A DNA stretch of 64,000 nt from Candidatus Iainarchaeum sp. GTDB lineage: Archaea; Iainarchaeota; Iainarchaeia; Iainarchaeales; UBA10219. The notes beneath the pieces were generated by a model that saw only the letters and a program-made list of their open reading frames with translations, was not told where the DNA came from and did not search any database. Both the position numbers and the translations under genes were made by a program. Location of the stretch: contig JAGVWE010000004.1 in the NCBI GenBank assembly GCA_018304425.1, positions 187,189 through 251,188 of the forward strand, given 5' to 3'. Of this stretch, positions 31,857 to 43,412 are shown piece by piece (within the stretch, counting starts at the first letter, position 1; each line of letters opens with the position of its first letter).

Positions 31857-32342
31857 TCAGCAGCCTAAGAGGTTTTTTTCGACGTAGATGTCCGTCGTGC
31901 CCCCATGGGCCTGGCTGAACACGCGTTTCACGACCTGGAAGCCTTGCGCGCGGTAGAAGGCAAGCGTTTCCGGTTCGCCGCAGAGGATGAACGCGCGGAC
32001 CTTGGCGGCGTGCCGTTGCCGGAACTCGTGCAAGGCTTTTTCCAGCAACTCGGCGCCGAAGCCCGCCCGCTTTTTTTCGGGCAAGACGAGGAACTGCTCG
32101 ATGGTGCCATGCAATGCGCCCGTCTTGCAGTAAATGAAGCCGGTTACTTTCCGGTGTTCCCTGGCCACGAAGCAAAACCGTTTCTTGCCCGCGAAGTGCT
32201 TGACGTAGTCCAGGGTGATGTGGGCAACCCTTTCCTCGAAGGCGTGCGTGGGCAGCTTGTGGTGGTAAGCCGAAATCCAGGAGACCAGGAAGGTTTCCAG
32301 CACGTCCACGGCATCGCTTTCCTCGAACCGCTTGATGAGCAT
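31857..32342 (-). CDS. GNAT N-acetyltransferase
   Basis: VLPEKKRAGFG.ELL, FY..QGF. Confidence 0.85.
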   Translation of the reverse strand: MLIKRFEESDAVDVLETFLVSWISAYHHKLPTHAFEERVAHITLDYVKHFAGKKRFCFVAREHRKVTGFIYCKTGALHGTIEQFLVLPEKKRAGFGAELLEKALHEFRQRHAAKVRAFILCGEPETLAFYRAQGFQVVKRVFSQAHGGTTDIYVEKNLLGC

Positions 32343-33595
32343 TATTTCACCAAATCGTTTACTTTATTCAAGTCGCTTACCTTTAACTTGGTTTCCTTGC
32401 CGCTCGCCAGGTCCTTCAAGGTGAGTTCGCCTGCCGCTAGGTCCTTCTCCCCGACAATCAAGACGAATGGCACGCCCAAGCGGCTCGCGTACGCCAGGTT
32501 CTTGCTGATGCCGCGCCCGCAGAGGTCCATGTCCGTGTTCACGCCCATCCCGCGCAGCCTCTGCGCGAGGTCAACGGCCGGCTTCAACGCGGTTTCCCCG
32601 ATGGGGGCCACGAACACCCGCGTCCGGTTCTGCGCCGGCAACCGGTCTTCGAGGACGTCCAGCAGCCGGTCGACGCCGAAGCTGATACCCGTGGCAGGAC
32701 TCTCTTGCCCTCCATACAGACCGACCAGCTTGTCGTACCTTCCGCCGCCGGCGATGCTCGCCACTCCCGGCACCATGACCTCGAAGACGTTGCCCGTGTA
32801 ATACTCCAGGCCCCGCGCGAGTGAAAGGTCCAACTGCACCTTGCCCTTGCAGCCCTGCGCTTCCAGCATCCCAATCAAGTCCAGCGCTTCCTTTAGGCCT
32901 TCGCTGTCCTTGCCGACCTGCTTCATCGCGCTCGCCGCGTCGTTCTGGCGCACGACTTCCAGGATGTCCGTGGGGATGCCCTTCTCTTTTAGTTCCTTCT
33001 CGACGCCCTTCCACTCGATTTTGTCGGCCTTGTCGAGGCTGCGGAAACAGTCCACGACCTGCTCGGGCTTCACCTTGCACTTCTTCGCGAGTTCCTCGAG
33101 CAGCTTCCGGTTGTTCACCTTCACCTTTGCGTCAAGGCCCAGGCGCTTCACGATTTCGAGCGCACAGGCAATCACTTCGAAGTCCGCGAGCGTGGAGTTT
33201 CCCCCCACCGTGTCCGCATCCGCCTGTGTGAACTCCCGGTAGCGGTTGGCGCCCGGCCGGTCATACCGCCACACCTGCCCGATTGCATAGCGCTTGAAGG
33301 GCTTCGACAGGTCCCGGTTGGTTGCCACTACGCGACCCATTGGCACCGTCAAGTCAAACCGCAATCCGATGTTGCGGTCGCCCTGGTCCTTGAACCAATA
33401 AATTTCCTTGGAAATCTCCTGGCCCCCCGCCCCCTTCTTGGCCAGCAACTCGAGTTCTTCGAGTGCGGGCGTCTGCAGGGGATAGAACCCGTACAACTCG
33501 AACACCTGCCGGCAGGTGTCCTCGATGAACTGCTTCTTCTTCATGCGTTCCGGGAGAAAGTCCCGCGTGCCGCGCACGTTTTGAAAGGTCGTCAT
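32342..33595 (-). CDS. hisS: Histidyl-tRNA synthetase
   Basis: RGTRDFLP, LRFDLTVP, RYREFTQ, LARGLEYYTG, GGGRYD. Confidence 0.97.
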   Translation of the reverse strand: MTTFQNVRGTRDFLPERMKKKQFIEDTCRQVFELYGFYPLQTPALEELELLAKKGAGGQEISKEIYWFKDQGDRNIGLRFDLTVPMGRVVATNRDLSKPFKRYAIGQVWRYDRPGANRYREFTQADADTVGGNSTLADFEVIACALEIVKRLGLDAKVKVNNRKLLEELAKKCKVKPEQVVDCFRSLDKADKIEWKGVEKELKEKGIPTDILEVVRQNDAASAMKQVGKDSEGLKEALDLIGMLEAQGCKGKVQLDLSLARGLEYYTGNVFEVMVPGVASIAGGGRYDKLVGLYGGQESPATGISFGVDRLLDVLEDRLPAQNRTRVFVAPIGETALKPAVDLAQRLRGMGVNTDMDLCGRGISKNLAYASRLGVPFVLIVGEKDLAAGELTLKDLASGKETKLKVSDLNKVNDLVK

Positions 33596-33635
33596 AACCC
33601 ATACCTCCTAAGTTCCTTGCAGTTTAATAGGTTTT

Positions 33636-33740
33636 GCCTTCGGGCTGTGTCCTGCGCAGCAGGACACGTTTCCCCGAAGACGCGGTCTTCGGGGCCTCGT
33701 CCCCAAGGGGACAAGGTCGCAGGCCTTTTGTCAAAAGGCC
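33636..33740. repeat. Cluster of five adjacent hairpins between hisG and hisS
   Basis: gcc/ggc, gtgtcctgc/gcaggacac, ccccgaagac/gtcttcgggg, cctcgtcccc/ggggacaagg, ggcctttt/aaaaggcc. Confidence 0.8.
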
Positions 33741-34625
33741 TCACGGCACCACCCGGTTGAACTCGAATTCCACCAAGTCCGTGGCCCCCGCCTTCTTGAT
33801 GAGCGGGATAAGGCCCGGCACCGCCTCCCGGTCCACGGCCACGTTCACGGCATAGCCTTCCTCGCCGTAGAGCTTGGCAATGGTGGGTTTTCGCAGGCAG
33901 GGCAGGATTTTCACCAGCTCATCCAGGCGTTCCGCGGACACGTTCATGACCAGCATGGACTTCTTCTTGCCCAACAGCACGCTCTGCAACAGCGTATTGA
34001 TTTCCGCGATTTTAGCGCGCTTGGCCTCGTCCGCCCAGGCTGCCTTGTTCGCGATGAGCCGCGTTGTTGACTCCATGACCGTGTCCAGGATGCAGAGGTT
34101 GTTGGCCTTCAACGAGCTCCCCGTCTCGGTCAACTCCACGATGGCGTCCACCAGCCGCGGGCACTTCGCCTCCGTGGCCCCCCACGAAAACTCGACCGCG
34201 GCGCGCACCCCATTGCGGGCCAGGTATTCCTTTGCCAGGTTCACGTACTCGGTGGCCACGCGCTTTCCCTCCACGTCCTTCACCGACTTGATGCCGGAAT
34301 CACAGGGCGCAGCCAAGACCACGCGCACCTTGCCGAACCCCTGCTTGGAGTACAGCAACTCGCTGACCTCCTCGACCCTCGCTCCGCTCTCCGCAATCCA
34401 GTCCTTGCCCGTGATGCCCGCATCCATGACCCCGTCCTCGACGAACCTGGCCATCTCCTGCGCGCGCACCATCATGACCTCGATGCCCGGGTCGCTGATG
34501 GCCGGAAAGTAGCTTCTTTCCGTGGCCTTGATGCGCAGGCCCGCCGCGTTGAACAACTCGACGGTCGCGTCCTGCAGGCTCCCCTTCGGGATGCCCAACT
34601 TCAATTTCTCCTTCGTTTCGTTCAT
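33741..34625 (-). CDS. hisG: ATP phosphoribosyltransferase, long form
   Basis: [31 protein letters not shown]-terminal regulatory domain. Confidence 0.95.
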
Positions 34626-35614
34626 TTTCTTTCCTCCACCTTGCCAAAAAAGCAACTCCGTTGATTGGTGTGACACGCGTTGCCGGTCTGCTCGACCCGA
34701 AACAACAACGCGTCCGCGTCACAGTCGAAGCGCACTTCCCGCACGCGCTGGAAGTTGCCGCTCGTCTCCCCCTTCGTCCACAGCGCCTTGCGGCTCCGGC
34801 TCCAGTAACAGGCCTTGCCCTCGCGCAGGGTCTTCTCCAGCGAAGCGCGGCTCACATAGGCCAGCATCAGGACCTCGCCGTTGCCCGCATCCTGCACCAC
34901 GGCCGGAATCAAGCCGCGGCCCTTGCCGAAGTCCAGGCGATTGAACGCCAGCGCGTCCTCAACGGAAATCCTTCCCTCGTACAACGCCATGCCCACCACC
35001 GCATCCACGCCCAGCCAGTCCAGGCGCGCCACCTCAGCCAGGGAGGACACCCCACCCGCATAGACCAGCCTGTTCCGGGTCAGCCTGGCCAGCCTTTCCA
35101 CGCGCCCGAAATCAAAGCCCGCCATCCGCCCCTCGACCTCCACAAAGGTGGCCATGAACTCCCCGCAATAGTCCTCCAACTCTGGCAGCAGTTCCTCCGG
35201 AGTCCGCGACGTCGCCTCCTTCCAGCCCTTCACGACGATGCGGCCGTCCTTCGAGTCCAGGGCCGCGACCACTTTCTCCCTTCCCACCACGCCAGCCAGC
35301 TCCGACAGGAAGCCTTTCTCGGCCTTCGACCCGACGATGACCTTCTTCGCCCCGGCCTCCACCAGCGCGACCGCTTTCTCCACCGAGTCGATGCCGCCTC
35401 CCACCCGCGCCCGCACCTTCCAGCACAACGCCTGCACGGTCTCCAGGTTAGAGCCCTCGCGCAACGCGGCATCCAAATCAATGACCTGGACTTCCCGGAA
35501 CCCCTTGAACCGCTCCGCTAAGCCATCCACGTCCGTGGACTCCCACTTCTTCTCGCGGCCGCCCACGAGCTGCACCGCCTTGCCATCCATCAAATCAATC
35601 GCCGGAATGATCAT
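34622..35614 (-). CDS. hisA: ProFAR isomerase / phosphoribosyl-AMP cyclohydrolase fusion (HisA-HisI)
   Basis: [18 protein letters not shown]; [31 protein letters not shown]...SCF. Confidence 0.93.
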
Positions 35615-36366
35615 GGTCGCACCTCAACCCTTTTTTCCTTCAAGAACGCTTTCACTTGCCCAATCGTCAACTCCCCAAAATGGAAGACGCTCGCTGCCAG
35701 CACGGCGTCCGCGCCTCCAACGGCAACCGCGTCGTAGAAGTCTTGGAGGCCGCCCGCGCCCCCCGAGGCGATGACGGGAATGCGCGCCCGCACCCCAATC
35801 GCCGCCAGCAACTCCACGTCAAACCCCTGCTTGGTGCCATCGCGGTCCATGGAGGTTACTAGCAGTTCCCCCGCGCCCAGTTCCTCGGCTTGCTTCGCCC
35901 ACTGCACCGCGTCAAGCCCGGTCGCCTGCGAGCCCGCGCGCGAATACATTTCCCACCCTGCTCCCACCCGTTTCGCGTCAATCGCCACGACCACGGCCTG
36001 GCTCCCAAACTCCCGCGCCAACTCGCCAATGAGTTCAGGCCGCTCCACCGCCGCTGAGTTGACCGTGACCCGGTCGGCCCCGGCCAAAAGCAGTTCCCTG
36101 GCCGCTTTAACCGACTTAATGCCGCCGCCCACGGTCAAGGGCACGAAGACGCGCCGGGCCGTCCGCCGAACCAATTCCACCACGGTCTTCCGTTCTTCGA
36201 CCGTGGCCCCGATATCCAGGAAAGCGATTTCGTCCGCGCCCTCCGCATAATATTTTTCCGCCAACTCCACGGGCAAGCCTGCCGGCTGAAGGCATCCGAA
36301 ACGGACTCCTTTCACGACCTTCCCGCCCTTCACGTCCAGGCAGGGGATGATTCTCTTCGCCAACAT
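35611..36366 (-). CDS. hisF: IGP synthase cyclase subunit
   Basis: [32 protein letters not shown]. Confidence 0.97.
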
Positions 36367-36370
36367 GTTC

Positions 36371-36970
36371 TCACGCTTCCACGAAATTCCTCAACACCTG
36401 CAGCCCCACGGGGCCGCTCTTCTCCGGGTGGAACTGTACGGCCCACACATTTTCGCATTCCACGGCCGAAACGAATGACTCGCCGTACTCGCTCCGCGCC
36501 GCCACGAGGTCGGGCGCGGTCCGCTTCACGGCGAACGAGTTCACGAAGTACGCGTAGGCGCCATCCTCGACGCCCTCGAAGAGCCGCGTCTTCCGCGTCA
36601 AGCGCAACCGGTTCCACCCGATTTGCGGCACCTTCCGCGCAACCGTGAACCGCTCCACCCTTCCCCCCAGCAACCCAAGGCCGCTCGCGTCCAGGCTTTC
36701 CTCGCTCCCCTCGAACAGCAATTGGAACCCCAGGCAGATGCCCAGGAAAGGCGTGCCCTCCCGCACCCGCTCCCTGAGCGCCGCCTCCAAGCCCGTGCGC
36801 CGAAGGGAGGCCAGGGCCGAGCCGAAGTTGCCCACACCGGGGAGCAGGATTTTGTCGGCCCCTGCCAGGTCTTTCGGCCCGGACGCGGTTATGTAGCTTG
36901 CACCCAGCCAGTCCAAGGCATTCCCCAGGCTGCCCAGGTTGCCCGCGCCATAGTCCACGATTCCAATCAC
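36371..36970 (-). CDS. hisH: IGP synthase glutamine amidotransferase subunit
   Basis: IVDYGAGNL.S, LPGVG, LGICLG, QFHPEKS; GTG start overlaps the hisB stop. Confidence 0.95.
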   Translation of the reverse strand: MIGIVDYGAGNLGSLGNALDWLGASYITASGPKDLAGADKILLPGVGNFGSALASLRRTGLEAALRERVREGTPFLGICLGFQLLFEGSEESLDASGLGLLGGRVERFTVARKVPQIGWNRLRLTRKTRLFEGVEDGAYAYFVNSFAVKRTAPDLVAARSEYGESFVSAVECENVWAVQFHPEKSGPVGLQVLRNFVEA

Positions 36971-37572
36971 GTTTTCACCTCCCGCAACCTTCCCTTCGTG
37001 CTCGGCACGCCCCGCATTCTCGCATCCGGCTCGACCGCCATCCGCAAAGCCTTTCCAAACGACTTGAACAGGGCTTCCGCGATGTGGTGCGAGTTCCTTC
37101 CCGCCAACAACCGCAGTTGCAGCGTGCAGCCTAGGTTGGTGGCCAGCGCTTCGAAGAAGTGCTCGACCATCTCCGCACTCAAGTCCCCGACCTTCTTCGC
37201 CGGGAACCCGGCCTCGAACGCGAGCTTTCCCCGCCCGCTCAAGTCCAGCGCGCACAAGGCCAGGCTCTCGTCCATGGGCAGGACGAAAAAGCCATAGCGG
37301 TTGATGCCATTTCGGTCGCCCAGCGCCTGACTCAAGGCCTGGCCCAAGGCGATGCCCGCGTCCTCGACCAAGTGGTGCTCGTCGAACCGGTCCACGCACT
37401 CGGCCTCCAGCTTCACGTCCACGAGGCTCTTCGCGGCCACCTGTTCCAGCATGTGGTCGAAGAAGTCAATCCCCGTTCGCACCGCGAATTTTCCGGTGCC
37501 GTCCAGGTCGACTTCCACGCGCACGCGCGTCTCCTTCGTCTTCCGCTCCACCCTTGCCTTCCTCATCTCCAT
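36967..37572 (-). CDS. hisB: Imidazoleglycerol-phosphate dehydratase
   Basis: R.TKET, FFDHML, DEHHLVED, PMDESL, NSHHIAEALFK. Confidence 0.96.
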   Translation of the reverse strand: MEMRKARVERKTKETRVRVEVDLDGTGKFAVRTGIDFFDHMLEQVAAKSLVDVKLEAECVDRFDEHHLVEDAGIALGQALSQALGDRNGINRYGFFVLPMDESLALCALDLSGRGKLAFEAGFPAKKVGDLSAEMVEHFFEALATNLGCTLQLRLLAGRNSHHIAEALFKSFGKALRMAVEPDARMRGVPSTKGRLREVKT

Positions 37573-39277
37573 CCCTCCAGCGCCTCATTCACATCCCCAA
37601 AAACCTTTCCCGCTCCGTTCTTTCGGAGCAGTTCCCTCAACTCCCTTCCCTTGTCTTGGGGCGGCAGCACCCCGACCGCGGTCAAGCCCGCCCGCCGGGC
37701 CGCCTGCTGGTCGTCTGGCGTGTCCCCGAAGTAGGCCCCAGCCGCCGCAGGACCTCCTTCAACCCCCACGGGCCTGGCTTGGCCTTTCCGGGAGGCACGT
37801 CCTCCATGCACACGACCTCCGCGAACAAGTCCCGCACCCCAAAGCGTTGCAGCGCAAACTCGGCTTCCGCTCTCGGTCTGCCCGTGAACACCGCCAGCCG
37901 ATACCTTTCAGCCAACCGCTTCAACCCTTCCTTGTCCGCCAGCAGTTTCTCGTTGGCAATCAAGCCGCCAAAGTTTTTGCCGAGGTAAAACCCCTGGAAC
38001 ACTCGCTTCACCGTCGCCAGCTCCGCTTTCTTTCCCTTCCGCTTGGCCAGCTCGCGGCTCAGCTCCCAGTCGCTGTTGTAGCCGCCCTCGTTCTTCAACG
38101 CCTGGATTTCGCCGGCGCTCGCCTTCTTCCCGGTCAACCGTTCCACTGTCAACCGGATGGCCTCGCGGTAGGATTTCCGCACGTCGACGAGCACTCCATC
38201 GATGTCGAAGACGAGCACGGGCTCGGCAAGTACGCCCTTCAGTTCGCGCACGAAGCGTTTCATCTGCTTCCGCGTGCCAATCGTCACCCGACAGCAGCCC
38301 GCCAACAACGGGTAACCGGAGCGGTCGCGCACCAGCACCCCGCGCTCGCGCAGCTTCCGCACCACGAACTTCACCTGCGACCCCAGCCGGAGGATGAAGG
38401 CGTTGGCTTTGCCGAACCGCGCTTCCACACCCAACCGTTTCAGGGCCTTCCGCAGCCAGGCCCGGCTCTTCCCCACTTCCCGGACATAGGCCCGCATGTA
38501 GGCCAGGTCCCCCAAAGCCGCCAGCCCAGCCCGCAAACCGGCTCCGCTGACCGGATACGGCCTTGCAGCGGCCGCCAGCCTTTCGATGACGGGCGCCTGT
38601 GCCAAGGCATAGCCCATGCGCAGCCCCGCCAAGCCGAAGGCCTTGGACAGCGTGCGCAGCACCAGGAGGTTGCCATATTTCCTGAGCATGGGGACCAGGG
38701 TCTCCCCGCCGAACTCGATGTAGGCCTCATCCACCAGCACCAACGCGTTCGGCGCGCGGCGCAGCAGCCGTTCAACCTGCTTGCGCGTGACCGTGGTTCC
38801 CGTCGGGTTGTTGGGCGAGCACACCACGATTGCGGCCGTCCGCGCGTTCACCGCCCCGAGCACGCGCTTGAGCGGGAAAGAAAACCCTGCGTCGTCGTCC
38901 AACAACACTTCCCGCACTTTCAATCCCGCCAGCTTCGCGTACAACTCGAACGGTGAGTACGTCGGAACCGGGAGCACGACTTCGCCGCGCGGCCTCCGGA
39001 TGGCGTCGAAAATCTTGTCGATGGCCTCGTCCGAGCCGTTGAACAGCAGGACGTTCTCCGGCCGCACCTTGCAGTAGGCCGCCACCTTCTCCGCCAGCCG
39101 CCGGCTCTCCGGATAAGCGGCCACCACTTCAGCCGTCAGGCCCCGCAACGCCTTCACCACCTTCGGGCTCGGCCCCACCGTGTTCTCACCGAAGTCCAGT
39201 CGCAGCTTGCCCAGCCTCCCGGCTATGGGCGGAACGTACTTTTCCGCTTCCATGACCTCTCCTCGCATTCCCATCAT
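37563..39277 (-). CDS. hisC: Histidinol-phosphate aminotransferase fused to a HAD phosphatase; frame break near 37738
   Basis: NGSDE, SPNNPTG, VDEAY, RTLSKAFGLAGLR; HAD motif FDIDGVLVDV; AYFGDTPDD continues in another frame to 37563. Confidence 0.88.
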
Positions 39278-40566
39278 TTCCGTTTCACCTCGAACCGTTT
39301 CTCCACCGACTTCCTGTGCGCGTCCAGCCCCTCTTCCCGGGCCAGGCACGCGACGGCCGGCCGCAAGGCCTCCAAACCCCTGCGCGACAGCCTTTCCACG
39401 TTCTGGAACCGCATGAACTCAAGCACGCTCAACCCGGACGAGAACCGGGCCGCGCGCCCGGTCGGCAAAACGTGGTTGGTGCCGCTCGCATAGTCTCCGG
39501 CCGCCTTGGGACTCCAAGGCCCCAGGAAAACCGTGCCCGCGTTGACGAGCCCATCCACAAACCGTTGGCCGAAGCCCCAGACCTCGGCGTGCTCGGCCGC
39601 GAAGTCGTTGGCGAACCGCAGGACCTGTGCCTCGTTTTTTGCGAGGACAATCAGCCCGTTTCGTTTCAGCGACTGCCGTGCAACTTGGCCGGTCGCCAGT
39701 TCCCCCAACTGCTGCTTTAACTCCTTTTCCACTTGCCGCGCCAGCTTCCGCGAAGTCGTGACCAGCACGCTGCGCGCGTTGGGCTCGTGCTCGGCGGAAG
39801 CCAAGAGGTCGGCGGCCATCCATTCCGGGTTCCCGCTTTTCGCCAGCACCAGCAGTTCGGTGGGCCCGGCCAGCAAGTCGATGCCGACCTCGCCGTAGAC
39901 GAGCCGCTTGGCCGCCGTGACATACGCGTTTCCCGGCCCGAAAACCTTGTCCACGCGTGGAATGCTTTCCGTGCCGTACGCCATCGCGGCAATGGCTTGC
40001 GCGCCCCCAACCTTGAAGATGCGGTCGGCTCCCGCCAGCAGGCAAGCAGCCACGATCAAGGGATTCGCTTTCCCGTCCTTCCGCGGCGGCGTGCACACGA
40101 TTTTCTCGCGCACGCCCGCCACCTGCGCGGGCACCAGGTTCATCAGCGCGGTCGATGGCAGCGGATATCGCCCGGCAGGGACATAGACCCCGACGCGCTC
40201 GATGGGCCGCACGGTCTGCCCCGCGTATATGCCGTTACCGAAGCCTTTTGCCCAGCTTTTAGGCAGGGCCGCCCGCTGGAAATCCGCGAGGTTCTTCGTC
40301 GCGCACTTCAACGCGCTCCGCTGTTCCTTTGTCAGGCCGCGCAGGGCCGCGCGTTTCTCGGCCGCGCCCACTTCCAGTTCGTTTGCCGATAGCGTGACCC
40401 GGTCGAACCGCCGCGTGAATTCGCGCAGGGCAGCGTCGCCGCGCCTGCGCACGGCCTCGAGTATTTCCCGTGCCGCTGGCTCCGCTGCGCGGTTCGCTTC
40501 CGCTTTCGGTTTCACCAACCGTTCATAGTCCGTTCGCGAAACCCCGGCCAACTCGACCCGGGTGAA
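39274..40566 (-). CDS. hisD: Histidinol dehydrogenase; probably initiated at ATG 40603 via a +1 shift, alternative TTG start 40551
   Basis: GVYVP.G, GGAQAIAAMAYGT, GPGN.YV, AGPTE, AEH, GDY..GTNHVLPT. Confidence 0.95.
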   Translation of the reverse strand, partial: FTRVELAGVSRTDYERLVKPKAEANRAAEPAAREILEAVRRRGDAALREFTRRFDRVTLSANELEVGAAEKRAALRGLTKEQRSALKCATKNLADFQRAALPKSWAKGFGNGIYAGQTVRPIERVGVYVPAGRYPLPSTALMNLVPAQVAGVREKIVCTPPRKDGKANPLIVAACLLAGADRIFKVGGAQAIAAMAYGTESIPRVDKVFGPGNAYVTAAKRLVYGEVGIDLLAGPTELLVLAKSGNPEWMAADLLASAEHEPNARSVLVTTSRKLARQVEKELKQQLGELATGQVARQSLKRNGLIVLAKNEAQVLRFANDFAAEHAEVWGFGQRFVDGLVNAGTVFLGPWSPKAAGDYASGTNHVLPTGRAARFSSGLSVLEFMRFQNVERLSRRGLEALRPAVACLAREEGLDAHRKSVEKRFEVKRK

Positions 40567-40978
40567 CTAAACCCCTTCTGTCAGTCTTGCGACTAGTCGT
40601 CATAACCCAACCCACCTCCAAGAGAAGTTGTTGGGCTACCCCCAATGATGGAGTAACCCGTGGTGAACTAACTCAACCCGTTCGGTTGAAGAAAAGAAAG
40701 GGCCGGTGCGGGGAATTGAACCCCGTTCAGAAGGTCCACAGCCTTCTATCCTAACCGATAGACCACACCAGCCATTACGCCTTTTTACAAAAGGTGTGCG
40801 AAAACGTCCCATGCGCGGCATGGGACTGCCCTCAGTATTGGCTTCGCTAAAAGAGGGACAAGCGCTGAGAATAGTTTCATAGCTAGCCAAGTCAAGTAGG
40901 GCGTTATCGCCGGCTATGAAGTAAATTCCTTCTCATAGGTTAATCGCTCACATATCTTCCGTCTGCGGAGTTTAAATA
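40523..40978 (-). promoter_or_regulatory. his leader: TATA box, three uORFs with His-codon putative +1 shift sites, RBS-sequestering hairpin, embedded tRNA-His
   Basis: TATTTAAA 40978-40971; uORF 40936-40904 MRRNLLHSRR; frame ending VHHGLLHHWG* at 40636; uORF 40603-40523 with AGA AGG GGT TTA GTT CAC. Confidence 0.78.
40701..40773 (-). tRNA. tRNA-His(GTG) with encoded G-1
   Basis: G-GCTGGTG...CACCGGC-C; GAAGG-CT-GTG-GA-CCTTC. Confidence 0.95.
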
Positions 40979-40980
40979 GG

Positions 40981-41496
40981 TTATGGTTTGCCTTCCGCAG
41001 CCGCTTGTTCCTGTCTTTCTTGCAGCAGCCGCTGGGCCGCCTGGATGCCGGCCATCAGTTTAACTGGTTCCCTGGCCGTCAACACGAGTTTCTTGAAGTG
41101 CCCGGACTTCTTGTGCACCAACATGGACTGCTTGTGCTGGGAAACGAAGTAAAGCGTGTCTAGGCTCATGCGGACGCCCCACCCGATGTAGAACGGGACG
41201 CGGTCCACGAGTTCCGCCGACGAAATGTCTTGCACCGGCACCCGGTACGAGTAAAACGGCAAACGGATCTCCAATGCCTGCTCGGTGGCCACGAACCGCA
41301 TCAAGTACAACCAATAAAAGGCCAGGACTACCAGGCCCAGCGCGGCCAGGCCCGGCGCCAGTGACTCGATTCCCACGGCCTGCTGGGAGAGATAGTACAA
41401 CAACGCGGCCAACGCCGCGACCAACGCCAACCAGAAGCCCTTGAACGCCCAACCCACCGGCGCCTGCTCCTCGTACAAGACCCGTTCAACGGCCAT
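40981..41496 (-). CDS. Membrane protein, two TM helices plus a possible PH-like domain
   Basis: Hydrophobic hairpin followed by YIGWGVR motif. Confidence 0.7.
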   Translation of the reverse strand: MAVERVLYEEQAPVGWAFKGFWLALVAALAALLYYLSQQAVGIESLAPGLAALGLVVLAFYWLYLMRFVATEQALEIRLPFYSYRVPVQDISSAELVDRVPFYIGWGVRMSLDTLYFVSQHKQSMLVHKKSGHFKKLVLTAREPVKLMAGIQAAQRLLQERQEQAAAEGKP

Positions 41497-41640
41497 GCCC
41501 TATTCAAGTGCGAACCCGTATTTAATGGTTTTCGCGCAGCCTTTTTGGCTTCGCCAAAAAGCCTGGGGGAAAACGCTTCCTGCCTTGCAGGAGACAGGCG
41601 AACCAGCGAAGGCACGGCAGAAGCCGGAGAAAAAGGAAAG

Positions 41641-41661
41641 TGCACGGGGCAGGATCCGAAC
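41641..41661. repeat. Duplicated 3' end of tRNA-Leu (21 bp, 1 mismatch)
   Basis: tgcacggggcaggatccgaac vs tgcacggggcaggattcgaac at 41732. Confidence 0.85.
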
Positions 41662-41731
41662 AGCCTTTTTACAAAAGGCTGGCGAAAACGTCCGAATGCA
41701 ACCCCTTCTCGCTTCGCTCGAAGGGGTGGAA

Positions 41732-41815
41732 TGCACGGGGCAGGATTCGAACCTGCGAAGGCACTAAGCCACTGGCCCCTGAAGCCAGCACGTTTGGCCG
41801 CTTCGTTACCCGTGC
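41732..41815 (-). tRNA. tRNA-Leu(CAG)
   Basis: CTGGC-TT-CAG-GG-GCCAG, long variable arm, GGTTCGAATCC. Confidence 0.95.
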
Positions 41816-42056
41816 AGCTGACGAAGCGTCAGCTGGCACCGCATACGTCGTCCCATCTCGCTGCTGCTCGATGGGACATAAATATGCCGTGCTTTGCCTG
41901 CTTCAAACCTAAGAGGCTGGGAAAGGGTTTTTATGGCTTGCCATTGAAGAAAGGCAGTGGCATACGTGGTATGCCACCTTTTCCCAGGGCTTCGTTGTCC
42001 ACTTCGTGGACGACGCCACCAAAAGCGAAGCTTTTGATGGTTGTAAAAAGCCCTAG

Positions 42057-42130
42057 CGACCCCGTTGGGATTTGAACCCAAGCCTAGAGCTCCGGAGGCT
42101 CTTATGCAATCCAGACTACACTACGGGGCC
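42057..42130 (-). tRNA. tRNA-Arg(CCG)
   Basis: AGAGC-CT-CCG-GA-GCTCT. Confidence 0.93.
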
Positions 42131-42151
42131 AACCCCTTTTGCCGGGGCAAG

Positions 42152-42225
42152 CGCACCCACAGGGATTTGAACCCTGGCCGGCAGCTCCGCAAGCTGCTAT
42201 GCTATCCTGGCTACACTATGGGTGC
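42152..42225 (-). tRNA. tRNA-Arg(GCG)
   Basis: GCAGC-TT-GCG-GA-GCTGC. Confidence 0.93.
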
Positions 42226-42335
42226 AACGATACAGATTAACGGAGGGGGCTTTTTTAAAACCACTCCTAGGCGGAATATTTATGTCCCACCACAGGTGGG
42301 ACGACATAGGGCGTCCAGCCGCCACCTTCGTCCGG

Positions 42336-43412
42336 CTAAATCCAGCCCTGGCCCCCGCCTTTCCGTTCTTCCGGGGGAGCGGGCTCTTCGTCGTAGGCCG
42401 TTACCCGGTTGCTGTTCAGCAACAACTGGGTGTACGCGAACTTGAGGGCCTTGTCCAATAAGACCGTGTAAATGATGAGCAGCGGCTTGAAAACGAATTT
42501 TGTGAGCAAGTAGAACATGCTCGTGAAGACGAAGGCCACGACGAACCAAAAGTTTTTCTCGATGACTGCGAAGAGGGGCACCCGGGCTTTCAGGGTGGCG
42601 AACGCGCTCTGTTTTTCGGCTTCGCTGGGTTCCACGGGTTTCTTGGCTTTCAGCCTTTCAACGACTTCCTGTCGGTAGGCCTTGGAGCCGAGTTCGAGTT
42701 TCTTGGCCTGCACTTTTTTGGCGAACGCCGCAACCCTCGGGTCCAGGCTTTCCCCGAGTTTCTGGTATTCCTCGGTTTCCAGGAGGCCGTCCAAGAGCAT
42801 GCGCTGGTTGATGATGACAAGGCTCGCGTTTTCTTCCACCAATGCCCGGGTGCCGGCGCCGACCAGGGAGTTGGAGACCACAGCGGACTCGAAGTCGTTC
42901 AGGTAGGTGGCGGGGTTTCCGTTCACTGCCAGGGCAATGGAGGCGAACACGCCGAAGCTGATGAGCAGCGCCACGTAGCCGTATCCCGCGGTGATGGCTT
43001 TCACCAACGCGTTCCCCTTCACCGTGGACAAATACCAGTAAACGATTTCAATGAAGAGGAAGACGCTCAAGGCGTAGAACGTCAGCGGCCAGGCGAAGTC
43101 CACGAGGTTCTTGAACAGGAAGAGGGCGGCAAACCCTCCGAGCACCAGTCCCACGGCGGAGGCCAGGTGCATGTTCTCCTTTTCCTTGACCTCCGAAAAA
43201 GAGGCCACCAGGGCCAGTGTGAGGGGAAACAATAGGAGAAACGCGTAGAAGGGGAGCGACAGCACCTTGTCGAGGTTTTCTCCCAGCTTGCCGAGCATCA
43301 CGATTTCGGAGAGCTTCACGCCGGAAGCGTTGAGGGAAAACATCCACGCGAAAACCGTCAACGCAATCAAGGCAGCCAAGACAAGGGTTTCCGCGTCCAC
43401 CTTTAATGCCAT
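42336..43412 (-). CDS. Multi-pass membrane protein
   Basis: 358 aa, about 6 TM segments around a soluble helical domain. Confidence 0.75.
   Translation of the reverse strand: MALKVDAETLVLAALIALTVFAWMFSLNASGVKLSEIVMLGKLGENLDKVLSLPFYAFLLLFPLTLALVASFSEVKEKENMHLASAVGLVLGGFAALFLFKNLVDFAWPLTFYALSVFLFIEIVYWYLSTVKGNALVKAITAGYGYVALLISFGVFASIALAVNGNPATYLNDFESAVVSNSLVGAGTRALVEENASLVIINQRMLLDGLLETEEYQKLGESLDPRVAAFAKKVQAKKLELGSKAYRQEVVERLKAKKPVEPSEAEKQSAFATLKARVPLFAVIEKNFWFVVAFVFTSMFYLLTKFVFKPLLIIYTVLLDKALKFAYTQLLLNSNRVTAYDEEPAPPEERKGGGQGWI

Follow-up and report, generated by a model that had tools for sequence, protein, structure and literature searches.

The enterobacterial hisL leader contains seven consecutive His codons, and stalling at these codons selects between a terminator and an antiterminator hairpin. 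At the +1 site of prfB, the P-site CUU re-pairs one base downstream; a slow A-site codon serves as the sensor, a purine element resembling a Shine-Dalgarno (SD) sequence lies upstream, the zero frame ends in a stop, and the +1 frame gives the product. In the E. coli tRNA-tufB operon and in mitochondrial 'tRNA punctuation', a tRNA sits within an mRNA precursor and is freed by RNase P and RNase Z. Here we analyze a 64,000-nucleotide (nt) stretch of DNA from Candidatus Iainarchaeum sp. (GCA_018304425.1, contig JAGVWE010000004.1, positions 187,189 to 251,188; hereafter the window), in which a small open reading frame (ORF), the gene for tRNA-His and a histidine (his) biosynthesis cluster follow one another on the minus strand. 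Based on its sequence and on that of its relatives, this locus is probably a histidine-starvation-sensing +1 frameshift relay, with the tRNA-His gene lying inside the conditional reading frame.

Slippage at a slow sense codon is known from yeast, where CUU slips in the P site of the CUU_AGG_C sequence of Ty1, ABP140 and EST3 (PMC5009743). With respect to starvation-specific trans-frame products arising from frameshifting at hungry codons, however, the relevant passage of that 2016 recoding review states that 'no examples are known', and the corresponding part of a 2021 review of archaeal recoding gives a single proven −1 case in cellular archaea (PMC8211752). In Firmicutes and Actinobacteria, hisS and his operons carry T-box riboswitches through which they respond to tRNA-His charging (PMC9413887). 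In the literature we searched, we found no account of His-codon frameshift control, of a tRNA gene within a reading frame, or of an archaeal tRNA-His linked to hisS or hisD.

All features of the window described below are on the minus strand, where the order is TATA-like box, 10-codon ORF, tRNA-His, a second upstream ORF (uORF2), hisD and the rest of the his genes, forming a co-directional histidine cluster. The TATA-like box (TATTTAAA, 40971–40978) is located 35 nt upstream of the ATG of the small ORF and is the presumed promoter of the entire unit. This small ORF, uORF1 (40904–40936), reads MRRNLLHSRR*, a zero-frame leader peptide of 10 codons with one His codon, and its stop is at 40904, where the initial annotation had ribosomes stopping. 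Small ORFs homologous to uORF1 stand before tRNA-His in 34 genomes, among them MRRNFLHQKQ* in L126 (L numbers denote loci and f numbers denote families). Within uORF1 lies His box 1 (40916–40931), the first proposed +1 shift site, which consists of the purine-rich AAGGA, the spacer ATTTA, CTT at 40921–40919 for the P site and the His codon CAT at 40918–40916 for the A site. In the +1 frame a TGA overlaps the uORF1 ATG, and we read no ATG, GTG or TTG between that TGA and the box, which leaves no way into this frame by initiation ahead of box 1.

The conditional +1 frame that would be entered at box 1 (40636–40917) comprises 93 sense codons (40917–40639) followed by TAG at 40638–40636, with box 2 in frame. 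It spans a hairpin with its T-run, a palindrome, the entire tRNA-His gene and the T-rich trailer of the tRNA; read from stop to stop, the sense run over the tRNA extends from 40932 to 40639, or 98 codons. The tRNA-His(GTG) gene occupies 40700–40773 and is crossed in the register ..GGC TGT GGA... Its G-1 at 40773 stands opposite the discriminator C73 at 40700, a pairing that marks tRNA-His identity, and no CCA is encoded. That an intact tRNA-His lies on the sense strand between shift sites, as had been proposed at the outset, is borne out by ARAGORN (40700–40772) and by Rfam (RF00005, 55.3 bits against a gathering score of 29), and the post-shift frame indeed crosses it without a stop. The gene is also the only tRNA-His among the 39 tRNAs that ARAGORN detects in the 7 contigs of this genome (1.48 Mb, 92.6% complete, 60% G+C), which answers a question raised with the original proposal.

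To place this frame in context, we turned to 196 genomes of the order and 215 of the class, the latter being the whole phylum as sampled and including 19 genomes beyond the order. hisD is present in 41 of the 196 and in 42 of the 215; the 19 genomes outside the order contribute a single hisD and a single genome with a strict box hit. Of the 31 hisD loci retrieved, 8 have tRNA-His upstream in the same orientation, while six further hisD loci and L119 have no tRNA-His in their flanks. Nineteen more tRNA-His loci came from BLAST searches with the tRNA followed by ARAGORN, and a search with the box pattern added 11 more genomes. A box-bearing small ATG ORF, with (C/G/A)TT-CAY, lies within 400 nt upstream of the tRNA in 23 of the first 26 tRNA-His loci (not in L127, L130 and L131), and our final set consists of 34 genomes with such an ORF within 420 nt upstream of tRNA-His.

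In 28 of these 34 loci, belonging to 11 families, the +1 frame crosses the entire tRNA, and the +2 frame does so in none. The expectation that the open frame is conserved in relatives thus stands for these 28 loci and fails for the other six. The register places G34 at the second codon position in 26 of the 28. At E≤1e-3, spacer similarity is found for 24 pairs of loci within families and for no pair between families, and when one representative of each of nine families is taken, the joint shuffle-times-frame probability of the open frames is 10^-12.3. Counted from the first box to the following box or stop, these 28 frames add up to 2,639 codons with 0 stops and 0 His codons, where base composition predicts 72.9 His; the other two frames of the same stretches contain 41 and 53 CAY triplets. 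His and the stops are the only residues absent from the crossing frames, the next most depleted being Tyr at 0.56 of expectation. These numbers indicate that the post-shift frame across tRNA-His is under selection, and together with the conserved boxes they uphold the shift sites of the initial annotation. Its direction of regulation, with starvation causing the shift, also fits a frame free of His codons.

Six of the tRNA-His genes carry introns. The introns of the five that are crossed are 153, 51, 63, 51 and 114 nt long, all divisible by 3, and that of the uncrossed one is 130 nt. Lengths divisible by 3 imply that the frame is kept on the unspliced, unprocessed precursor. We also considered that the crossing frames might encode real proteins and rejected this, as peptide conservation does not extend from one family to another and Pfam gives no hit for the f31 +1 products that we tested.

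The promoter motifs are compatible with a single precursor. Of the 34 loci, 30 have a TATA-like hexamer at −42 to −17 relative to the ATG of the small ORF; the equivalent window before the tRNA holds one in 8 loci and a control window in 11. This motif count suggests a shared precursor that would start with a leaderless or short-leader small ORF, and it agrees with the earlier observation that no separate TATA box precedes the tRNA.

Outside this group the arrangement appears to be rare. Among 160 background HisD loci (80 from unrelated genome contigs and 80 from metagenomes, distant and mostly bacterial), none has the strict box, and a single one has a tRNA-His nearby, of bacterial type and without a box. 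Within the class, the strict box pattern gives 84 hits in 64 of 215 genomes compared to 39 for a reversed control (counted by hand); they concentrate at his loci, as they do in 18 of 23 f21 genomes.

Where the crossing frame ends is as informative as where it begins. In 11 crossing loci the next gene is hisS. Relative to its ATG, the stop in ten of them lies at −1, −1, +3, −1, +7, −5, +7, +5, −1 and +3 nt, all within −5 to +7 nt, and five of the ten have ATGA overlaps with the hisS start; the eleventh has an offset of +17, measured to a possible internal Met. A second box occurs in none of the 11. In L005, the stop of the crossing frame overlaps the hisD ATG, and in L178 it overlaps, as judged by eye, the TTG that opens a HisH-like ORF.

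A second in-frame box after the tRNA, followed by a stop, is present in 13 of the 28 crossing loci, including the window. The genes that follow are hisD in six (one truncated), hisG in three (two confirmed by Pfam), hisF in one, an Asp/Glu racemase in two, and an unassigned gene in one. From the second box, the path to the next box is direct in L009. Elsewhere it leads through a stop near the ATG of an SD-led, box-bearing uORF: the two overlap as ATGA in L025 and L026, the stop is 3 nt before the ATG in L148, and it is 8 nt after the ATG in the window. At the last box, the +1 frame coincides with that of HisD in the window, L008, L009, L025, L026 and L122, and with that of HisG-HisE in L136 and L148. 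Several sequences suggest that this last shift is needed. In L025, a TAG closes the hisD frame immediately 5' of the box, and the first ATG, GTG or TTG comes no earlier than the codon for the invariant V38, which itself follows the invariant I34. In L008 and L009, residues that align with the canonical HisD N-terminus lie before any start codon. Sequence comparison shows HisD or HisG N-termini that lack a start of their own. Taken together, the stop-start overlaps can be read directly from the sequence, and the role they point to for the crossing frame is to deliver ribosomes to the next start codon or the next His box.

In the window itself, two further boxes separate the tRNA from hisD. His box 2 and its His-rich tail (40636–40677) comprise GTT at 40668–40666, CAC CAC at 40665–40660, CAT CAT at 40650–40645 and the TAG at 40638–40636. 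The tail has four His in eight codons, compared to one His codon each in uORF1 and uORF2. A TAG at 40670–40668 lies in the +1 frame immediately 5' of TTC. The frame resulting from a +1 shift at box 2 (40593–40664) passes a predicted hairpin (40603–40640), in which the SD of uORF2 (GGAGGTG, 40619–40613) is paired with CTTCTC and the stretch before the ATG is paired with TAGCCCAAC, and ends at TAG 40595–40593. The region between the tRNA and hisD folds with a minimum free energy of −64.6 kcal/mol (z −2.9), and 1 of 200 shuffles was equally stable.

uORF2 (40523–40603) is an SD-led ORF of 26 codons with His box 3 in frame. Its SD and start (GGAGGTGGGTTGGGTTATGACGAC, 40595–40619) are much like those of hisS (GGAGGTATGGGTTATGACGAC, 33585–33608), and both peptides start with MTT. 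Box 3 (40562–40577) consists of AAGGGG, the spacer TTTA, GTT at 40567–40565 and CAC at 40564–40562; a TAG at 40569–40567 comes directly before TTC ACC, which opens the hisD frame. From this stop the +1 frame runs for 429 codons into HisD. As entered by the shift (ACC 40563–40561 onward), the hisD frame covers 39274–40563 and matches Pfam Histidinol_dh with an E value of 3.5e-149. In an alignment of HisD N-termini, the post-shift residues TRVELAG of the window match the conserved first strand, and a TTG at 40551 falls within that strand. A start of hisD at this TTG is possible but would truncate a conserved element.

Comparison of 57 boxes gives the consensus A-G-T-G-A-K-T-T-A, then C/G/A-TT, then CAY. 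The P-site codon is NTT in all 57 (CTT in 42, GTT in 13, ATT in 2), with no other Leu, Val or Ile codon, NTT being a criterion of the search, although it turned up in 23 of the 26 tRNA-His loci gathered independently of the box pattern; the A-site His codon, for which CAY was likewise a criterion, is CAT in 29 and CAC in 28. Within the boxes, Ser is encoded exclusively by AGT, Asp by GAT and Glu by GAG, and this fixed usage points to a constraint on the nucleotides as well as on the residues. Among the tRNAs of the genome are Leu(GAG), Val(GAC) and Ile(GAT), which with their G34 read NUU codons, and by decoding rules positions 2 and 3 would pair Watson-Crick after a +1 slip onto UUC. GTGA(T), GGAGG or AAGGGG, located 3–4 nt before NTT, is complementary to the 3' end of 16S rRNA (GATCACCTCCT); GTGA doubles as the conserved Ser-Asp/Glu codons, and its register is unlike that of prfB. 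The zero frame stops 1–22 codons beyond the box, and the leaders of relatives contain 1–3 His codons. In 10 of 57 boxes, a +1-frame stop at most 3 codons before TTC restricts entry to the box itself; all three boxes of the window are without a usable start there, so that their +1 frames can be entered only at the box. Transcriptional slippage was considered as a route into the +1 frame and rejected, the boxes being without a homopolymer run.

The zero-frame leaders also vary in ways of their own. In L002, L008, L009, L025, L134, L151 and L175 they run past the His codon with a Cys/Gly-rich or acidic tail (long tails include ..HGCDGCPGCGPPQ* and ..HGCGECGEGDEGE..), and other leaders end after 2–5 codons.

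We propose that these features work together as follows. From a single promoter, the TATA-like box at 40978–40971, a transcript would run from the leader ORF through tRNA-His into the his operon. When charged tRNA-His is plentiful, CTT-CAT would be read in frame and translation would stop at 40904, so that the tRNA could fold and undergo processing. Under a shortage of charged tRNA-His, the His codon in the A site would stay empty, and the P-site tRNA on NUU could re-pair on UUC, a +1 shift of the prfB/Ty1 type. The shifted ribosome would enter a frame free of stops and His codons and would pass the terminator-like hairpins, the unprocessed pre-tRNA-His (in relatives even the unspliced one) and the T-rich trailer. 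In relatives with hisS after the tRNA, the frame would then end on the hisS start, allowing termination-reinitiation coupling. Before biosynthesis genes, as in the window, it would end at a second His box, to be followed by an SD-led uORF with the last box, whose +1 frame is the enzyme frame; biosynthesis would thus need two or three successive starvation-dependent shifts. Ribosome passage may affect termination, tRNA processing and mRNA stability. It could deliver ribosomes, carry RNA polymerase past T-runs, block folding and RNase P/Z cleavage, or combine these effects, which are not exclusive.

Several observations weigh against this proposal. The open frame of the window is unimpressive by itself: spacer shuffling multiplied by frame choice gives a chance probability of ~0.037, which is weak alone, and the 84 codons of the conditional frame before box 2 have 0 stops and 0 His codons, of which the lack of His is not significant alone. 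The boxes of the window are off-consensus, with AAGGA, TTGA and AAGGGG instead of GTGA, and the strict pattern has 0 hits in the window genome. In the comparative set, a pattern including GTGA yielded 11 of the 34 loci, and a regular expression requiring NTT yielded all boxes, so the consensus is partly built in; 16 of the 28 crossing loci come from one family, f21; and the six loci that are not crossed comprise three of f31, L144 (with a stop in the tRNA), L151 and L153. Where GTT or ATT is in the P site, the re-paired codon would, by decoding rules, have a first-position mismatch. An open GTG is present in the +1 frame at −8 in 38 of 57 boxes, which makes initiation there possible.

Further difficulties lie downstream of the tRNA. 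In the window, the relay from box 2 to uORF2 would be a re-initiation 8 nt upstream of the stop and is hypothetical, and uORF2 may be a relic of the 5' end of hisS from an ancestral tRNA-His-hisS layout, the commonest in relatives. The possible hisD start at TTG 40551 is 13 nt past box 3 and uORF2 has its own SD, and HisD synthesis therefore need not depend on ribosomes crossing the tRNA. In L122 (genome G103), hisD has a normal N-terminus after the last box and then a stop after ~64 codons; this hisD is a pseudogene or an assembly error. Translating through the sole tRNA-His gene should also cost tRNA output exactly when it is needed. Finally, the occurrence of the frameshift, its triggering by low His-tRNA and the single transcript are what we infer from sequence; a search of RNA sequencing runs listed none that contains the locus.

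One competing explanation is that the elements are independent neighbours, with a frame open by chance, with their own promoters and starts, and with TTAGTTCACC-like boxes serving as operators for a histidine-responsive regulator. In the window genome such openness is indeed common: 31 of the 39 tRNAs have an open sense frame across them, in 12 the run is at least 98 codons long, and at 8 some small ATG ORF with the cognate codon has a +1 frame that crosses the tRNA. The initial annotation's figure of roughly 1% for the open run was consequently too low. Looking for the same design at the other tRNAs of the genome gave chance hits at seven, none with box context, and among the 39 tRNAs there is no evidence that other amino acids use such a relay. 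Box scans of the genome gave 27 strict-type and 80 loose hits. None of the five candidates inspected resembles a gene start, four of them being low-complexity or antisense-looking, and the signature of a short zero frame with a long +1 frame was limited in these scans to two boxes of the his locus. The significance of the crossing frame is drawn from the relatives only; the window by itself proves nothing. The TTG start of hisD and the operator-like placement of the boxes, as direct repeats upstream of regulated genes, would also suit independent neighbours. In the relatives, however, the His codon is always in frame with an upstream ATG, openness across the tRNA is seen for the +1 frame (28 of 34 loci) but never for the +2 frame, only His and stops are missing from 2,639 codons, the crossed introns are divisible by 3, stops sit on start codons, and the His codon varies synonymously between CAC and CAT (28 versus 29). 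None of these regularities is predicted by operator sites, and we give independent neighbours almost no credence.

A second alternative, the main rival, dispenses with the frameshift. As in classical attenuation, stalling at the His codon could remodel the RNA, with the crossing ORF begun at the GTG of GTGA or by re-initiation and coupling the downstream gene. The open GTG at −8 in many boxes is what this explanation needs, and the crossing frame of the window has a TTG at 40890, 14 nt past the stop of the small ORF; hairpins with T-runs trail the small ORF in the window, L008 and L009, and His runs (HH, HHH) follow several boxes. Yet 19 of the 57 boxes, including all three of the window, are without a usable GTG, 10 of them having a stop between GTG and TTC, and in the leaderless small ORFs the GTG has no SD before it. 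By its usual footprint, a ribosome that stalls while NTT occupies the P site should cover position −8. It would block GTG initiation in starvation, the opposite of the control expected for hisS and his genes. Free re-initiation would allow the +1 or the +2 frame, while the +1 frame is used in 28 loci and the +2 frame in none. In addition, the HisD of L025 has no start codon before its invariant residues. We therefore regard stalling without a frameshift as unlikely.

More compatible with our proposal is the possibility, close to that of the initial annotation, that crossing governs the fate of the RNA. Without ribosomes, the tRNA would fold and RNase P and RNase Z would sever the his mRNA; shifted ribosomes would keep the mRNA whole or carry RNA polymerase past the T-runs. 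This is a complement of the relay, differing from it in which consequence of ribosome passage matters. A common tRNA/mRNA precursor is made probable by the general lack of a TATA-like box proper to tRNA-His, and the frame that stays open across introns argues that the unprocessed precursor is translated. T-rich tracts flank the tRNA on both sides, and hisS and uORF2 have their own SDs, so that coupling alone is perhaps not needed. On the other hand, sequence contains no sign of cleavage, stability or termination effects, the placement of the crossing-frame stop exactly on the next start speaks for translational coupling rather than RNA protection, and the second and third boxes come into play only once the tRNA lies behind the ribosome. 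As the consequence that matters most, RNA fate is conceivable but less likely than not. For the frameshift relay in its fullest form, in which this archaeal order senses histidine by 'hungry-codon' +1 frameshifting through the unprocessed tRNA-His precursor to hisS or to further His boxes, and the tRNA gene doubles as a ribosome-gated processing and termination switch, we lean slightly towards acceptance.

Some boxes lead to genes other than hisS and the his enzymes. The +1 frame of His boxes runs into an Asp/Glu/hydantoin racemase in L134 (confirmed by Pfam), L167 and L175, where the conserved N-terminus ..IGVLGGMGP precedes the first ATG, and in L161 and L163 boxes lead into a conserved 139-residue protein of unknown function. 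The racemase and the 139-residue protein are possible further members of the regulon. In f31 (L123, L124 and L125), the +1 frame after a box ORF (..RRDQLHH..) encodes a His-free peptide that is conserved (..SRLVLPLEIRDSLGL..), ends 16–92 nt before tRNA-His and has no Pfam hit. As hisD is missing from the f31 genomes, their box may have another target. In L153, a 42-codon ORF whose coordinates span the tRNA has its ATG overlapped by the +1 stop.

The conditional frame of the window contains elements that could act on transcription. The hairpin GTCCCATG-CCGCG-CATGGGAC, followed by GTTTTC (40800–40826), is terminator-like by fold and sequence. On the other side of the tRNA, the T-rich trailer (TTTCTTTTCTT) and the hairpin CAACC-GAACG-GGTTG (40674–40699) are possibly the tRNA's terminator region. 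The palindrome CCTTTTGTAAAAAGG (40780–40794), 7 nt before the tRNA G-1, lies within a stretch that is multi-copy in the metagenome: read depth is 100 at 40786–40806 compared to ~9.5, and several foreign contigs match 40776–40828. It belongs to a palindromic element, CCTTTT-NN(N)-AAAAGG, often followed by TTTGCGAAAAA, that recurs near tRNA-His, in tRNA-His introns and between hisG and hisS. We find it at 40780–40794 and 33722–33740 of the window, in L026, L121, L141, L124 and L127, and within the introns of L005 (in tandem), L151, L170 and L172. This palindrome may be a mobile hairpin element or a bidirectional terminator. Elsewhere in the genome, on contigs C4 and C5, the stretches ~130–170 nt upstream of tRNA-Ala(CGC) and tRNA-Val(CAC) have similar translations (..SPKT.SSGPR..GDKVA..), which indicates a common DNA element upstream of unrelated tRNA genes.

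The remainder of the cluster (32342–39349), assigned by Pfam and tblastn, comprises hisC/HAD, an ORF with a hisH domain, hisF, hisA-hisI, hisG and hisS. The hisS of the window is terminal in the cluster and has its own TATA-like box and SD, without a His box. An Rfam search of 39500–43000 by E value found tRNAs alone above threshold, with no T-box or other cis-regulator and no T-box match up to E=10. A scan for sigma-70 promoters and intrinsic terminators, which is unsuited to an archaeon, gave 3 terminator-like sites compared to 3.1 expected. The archaeal small-subunit rRNA model RF01959 matches over its full length with 1327 bits, although the control for this model shows that it also matches in bacteria; the tRNA introns after position 37/38 in relatives and the TATA-type boxes fit an archaeon.

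We also asked whether the frames of the window could be artefacts. Over 40450–41050, DNA contigs from two runs, X1 and X6, agree with the window, with no substitutions or indels listed, and the frames are therefore not assembly errors; X1 is possibly the source sample of the assembly and, if so, is not independent. This agreement, together with a layout that recurs in 34 genomes, rules out assembly error as an explanation. Contigs of X1 and X6 also join 40774 to 40916, skipping 141 nt, with a shorter side of only 21 letters; the joint is probably that of a foreign or repeat-derived contig and not a deletion variant.

Amino-acid control in archaea is poorly understood, and if the relay is real, its mechanism would have been discovered from sequence alone. 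It would be the first natural case of starvation-triggered frameshifting that switches genes on, and a tRNA gene inside a translated frame, introns included, would tie tRNA maturation, translation and operon expression together on one RNA. The design would be graded, with one shift for the synthetase and two to four for the biosynthetic enzymes, giving a steep response from codons alone. It would also give an annotation rule for hisD and hisG genes that appear 'start-less' or 'frameshifted' in small archaeal genomes.

Compared to the described systems, the locus shares single elements with each. Like hisL, it has His codons in a short leader before his genes and T-run hairpins after the leader; unlike hisL, it has one to three His codons in a fixed slippery context, with no consecutive His run in uORF1 or uORF2, and the signal would be passed on by a change of frame. 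It shares its regulon logic with the T-box riboswitches, but these act through RNA-tRNA contact, and no T-box matched in the region searched. The tRNA of the tRNA-tufB operon and of tRNA punctuation lies outside the translated frame, whereas here selection keeps the frame open and His-free through the tRNA and even its intron. At the Ty1, ABP140 and EST3 sites, the codon is slow due to a rare tRNA and the shift is constitutive; here the sole tRNA-His reads the codon, and the shift would report amino-acid supply. The locus also resembles prfB, whose layout is seen in box 3 of the window (AAGGGG, TTTA, GTT, CAC) and in the boxes of L008, L009 and L002 (GGAGG, 3 nt, CTT or GTT, CAC). However, most boxes have GTGA and a 4-nt spacer rather than AGGGGG and 3 nt, and they occur in an archaeon. 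With a sense codon, His, in the A site, the signal would be charged tRNA-His and not a release factor, and two to four shifts would be chained here, with one post-shift frame running through a tRNA gene.

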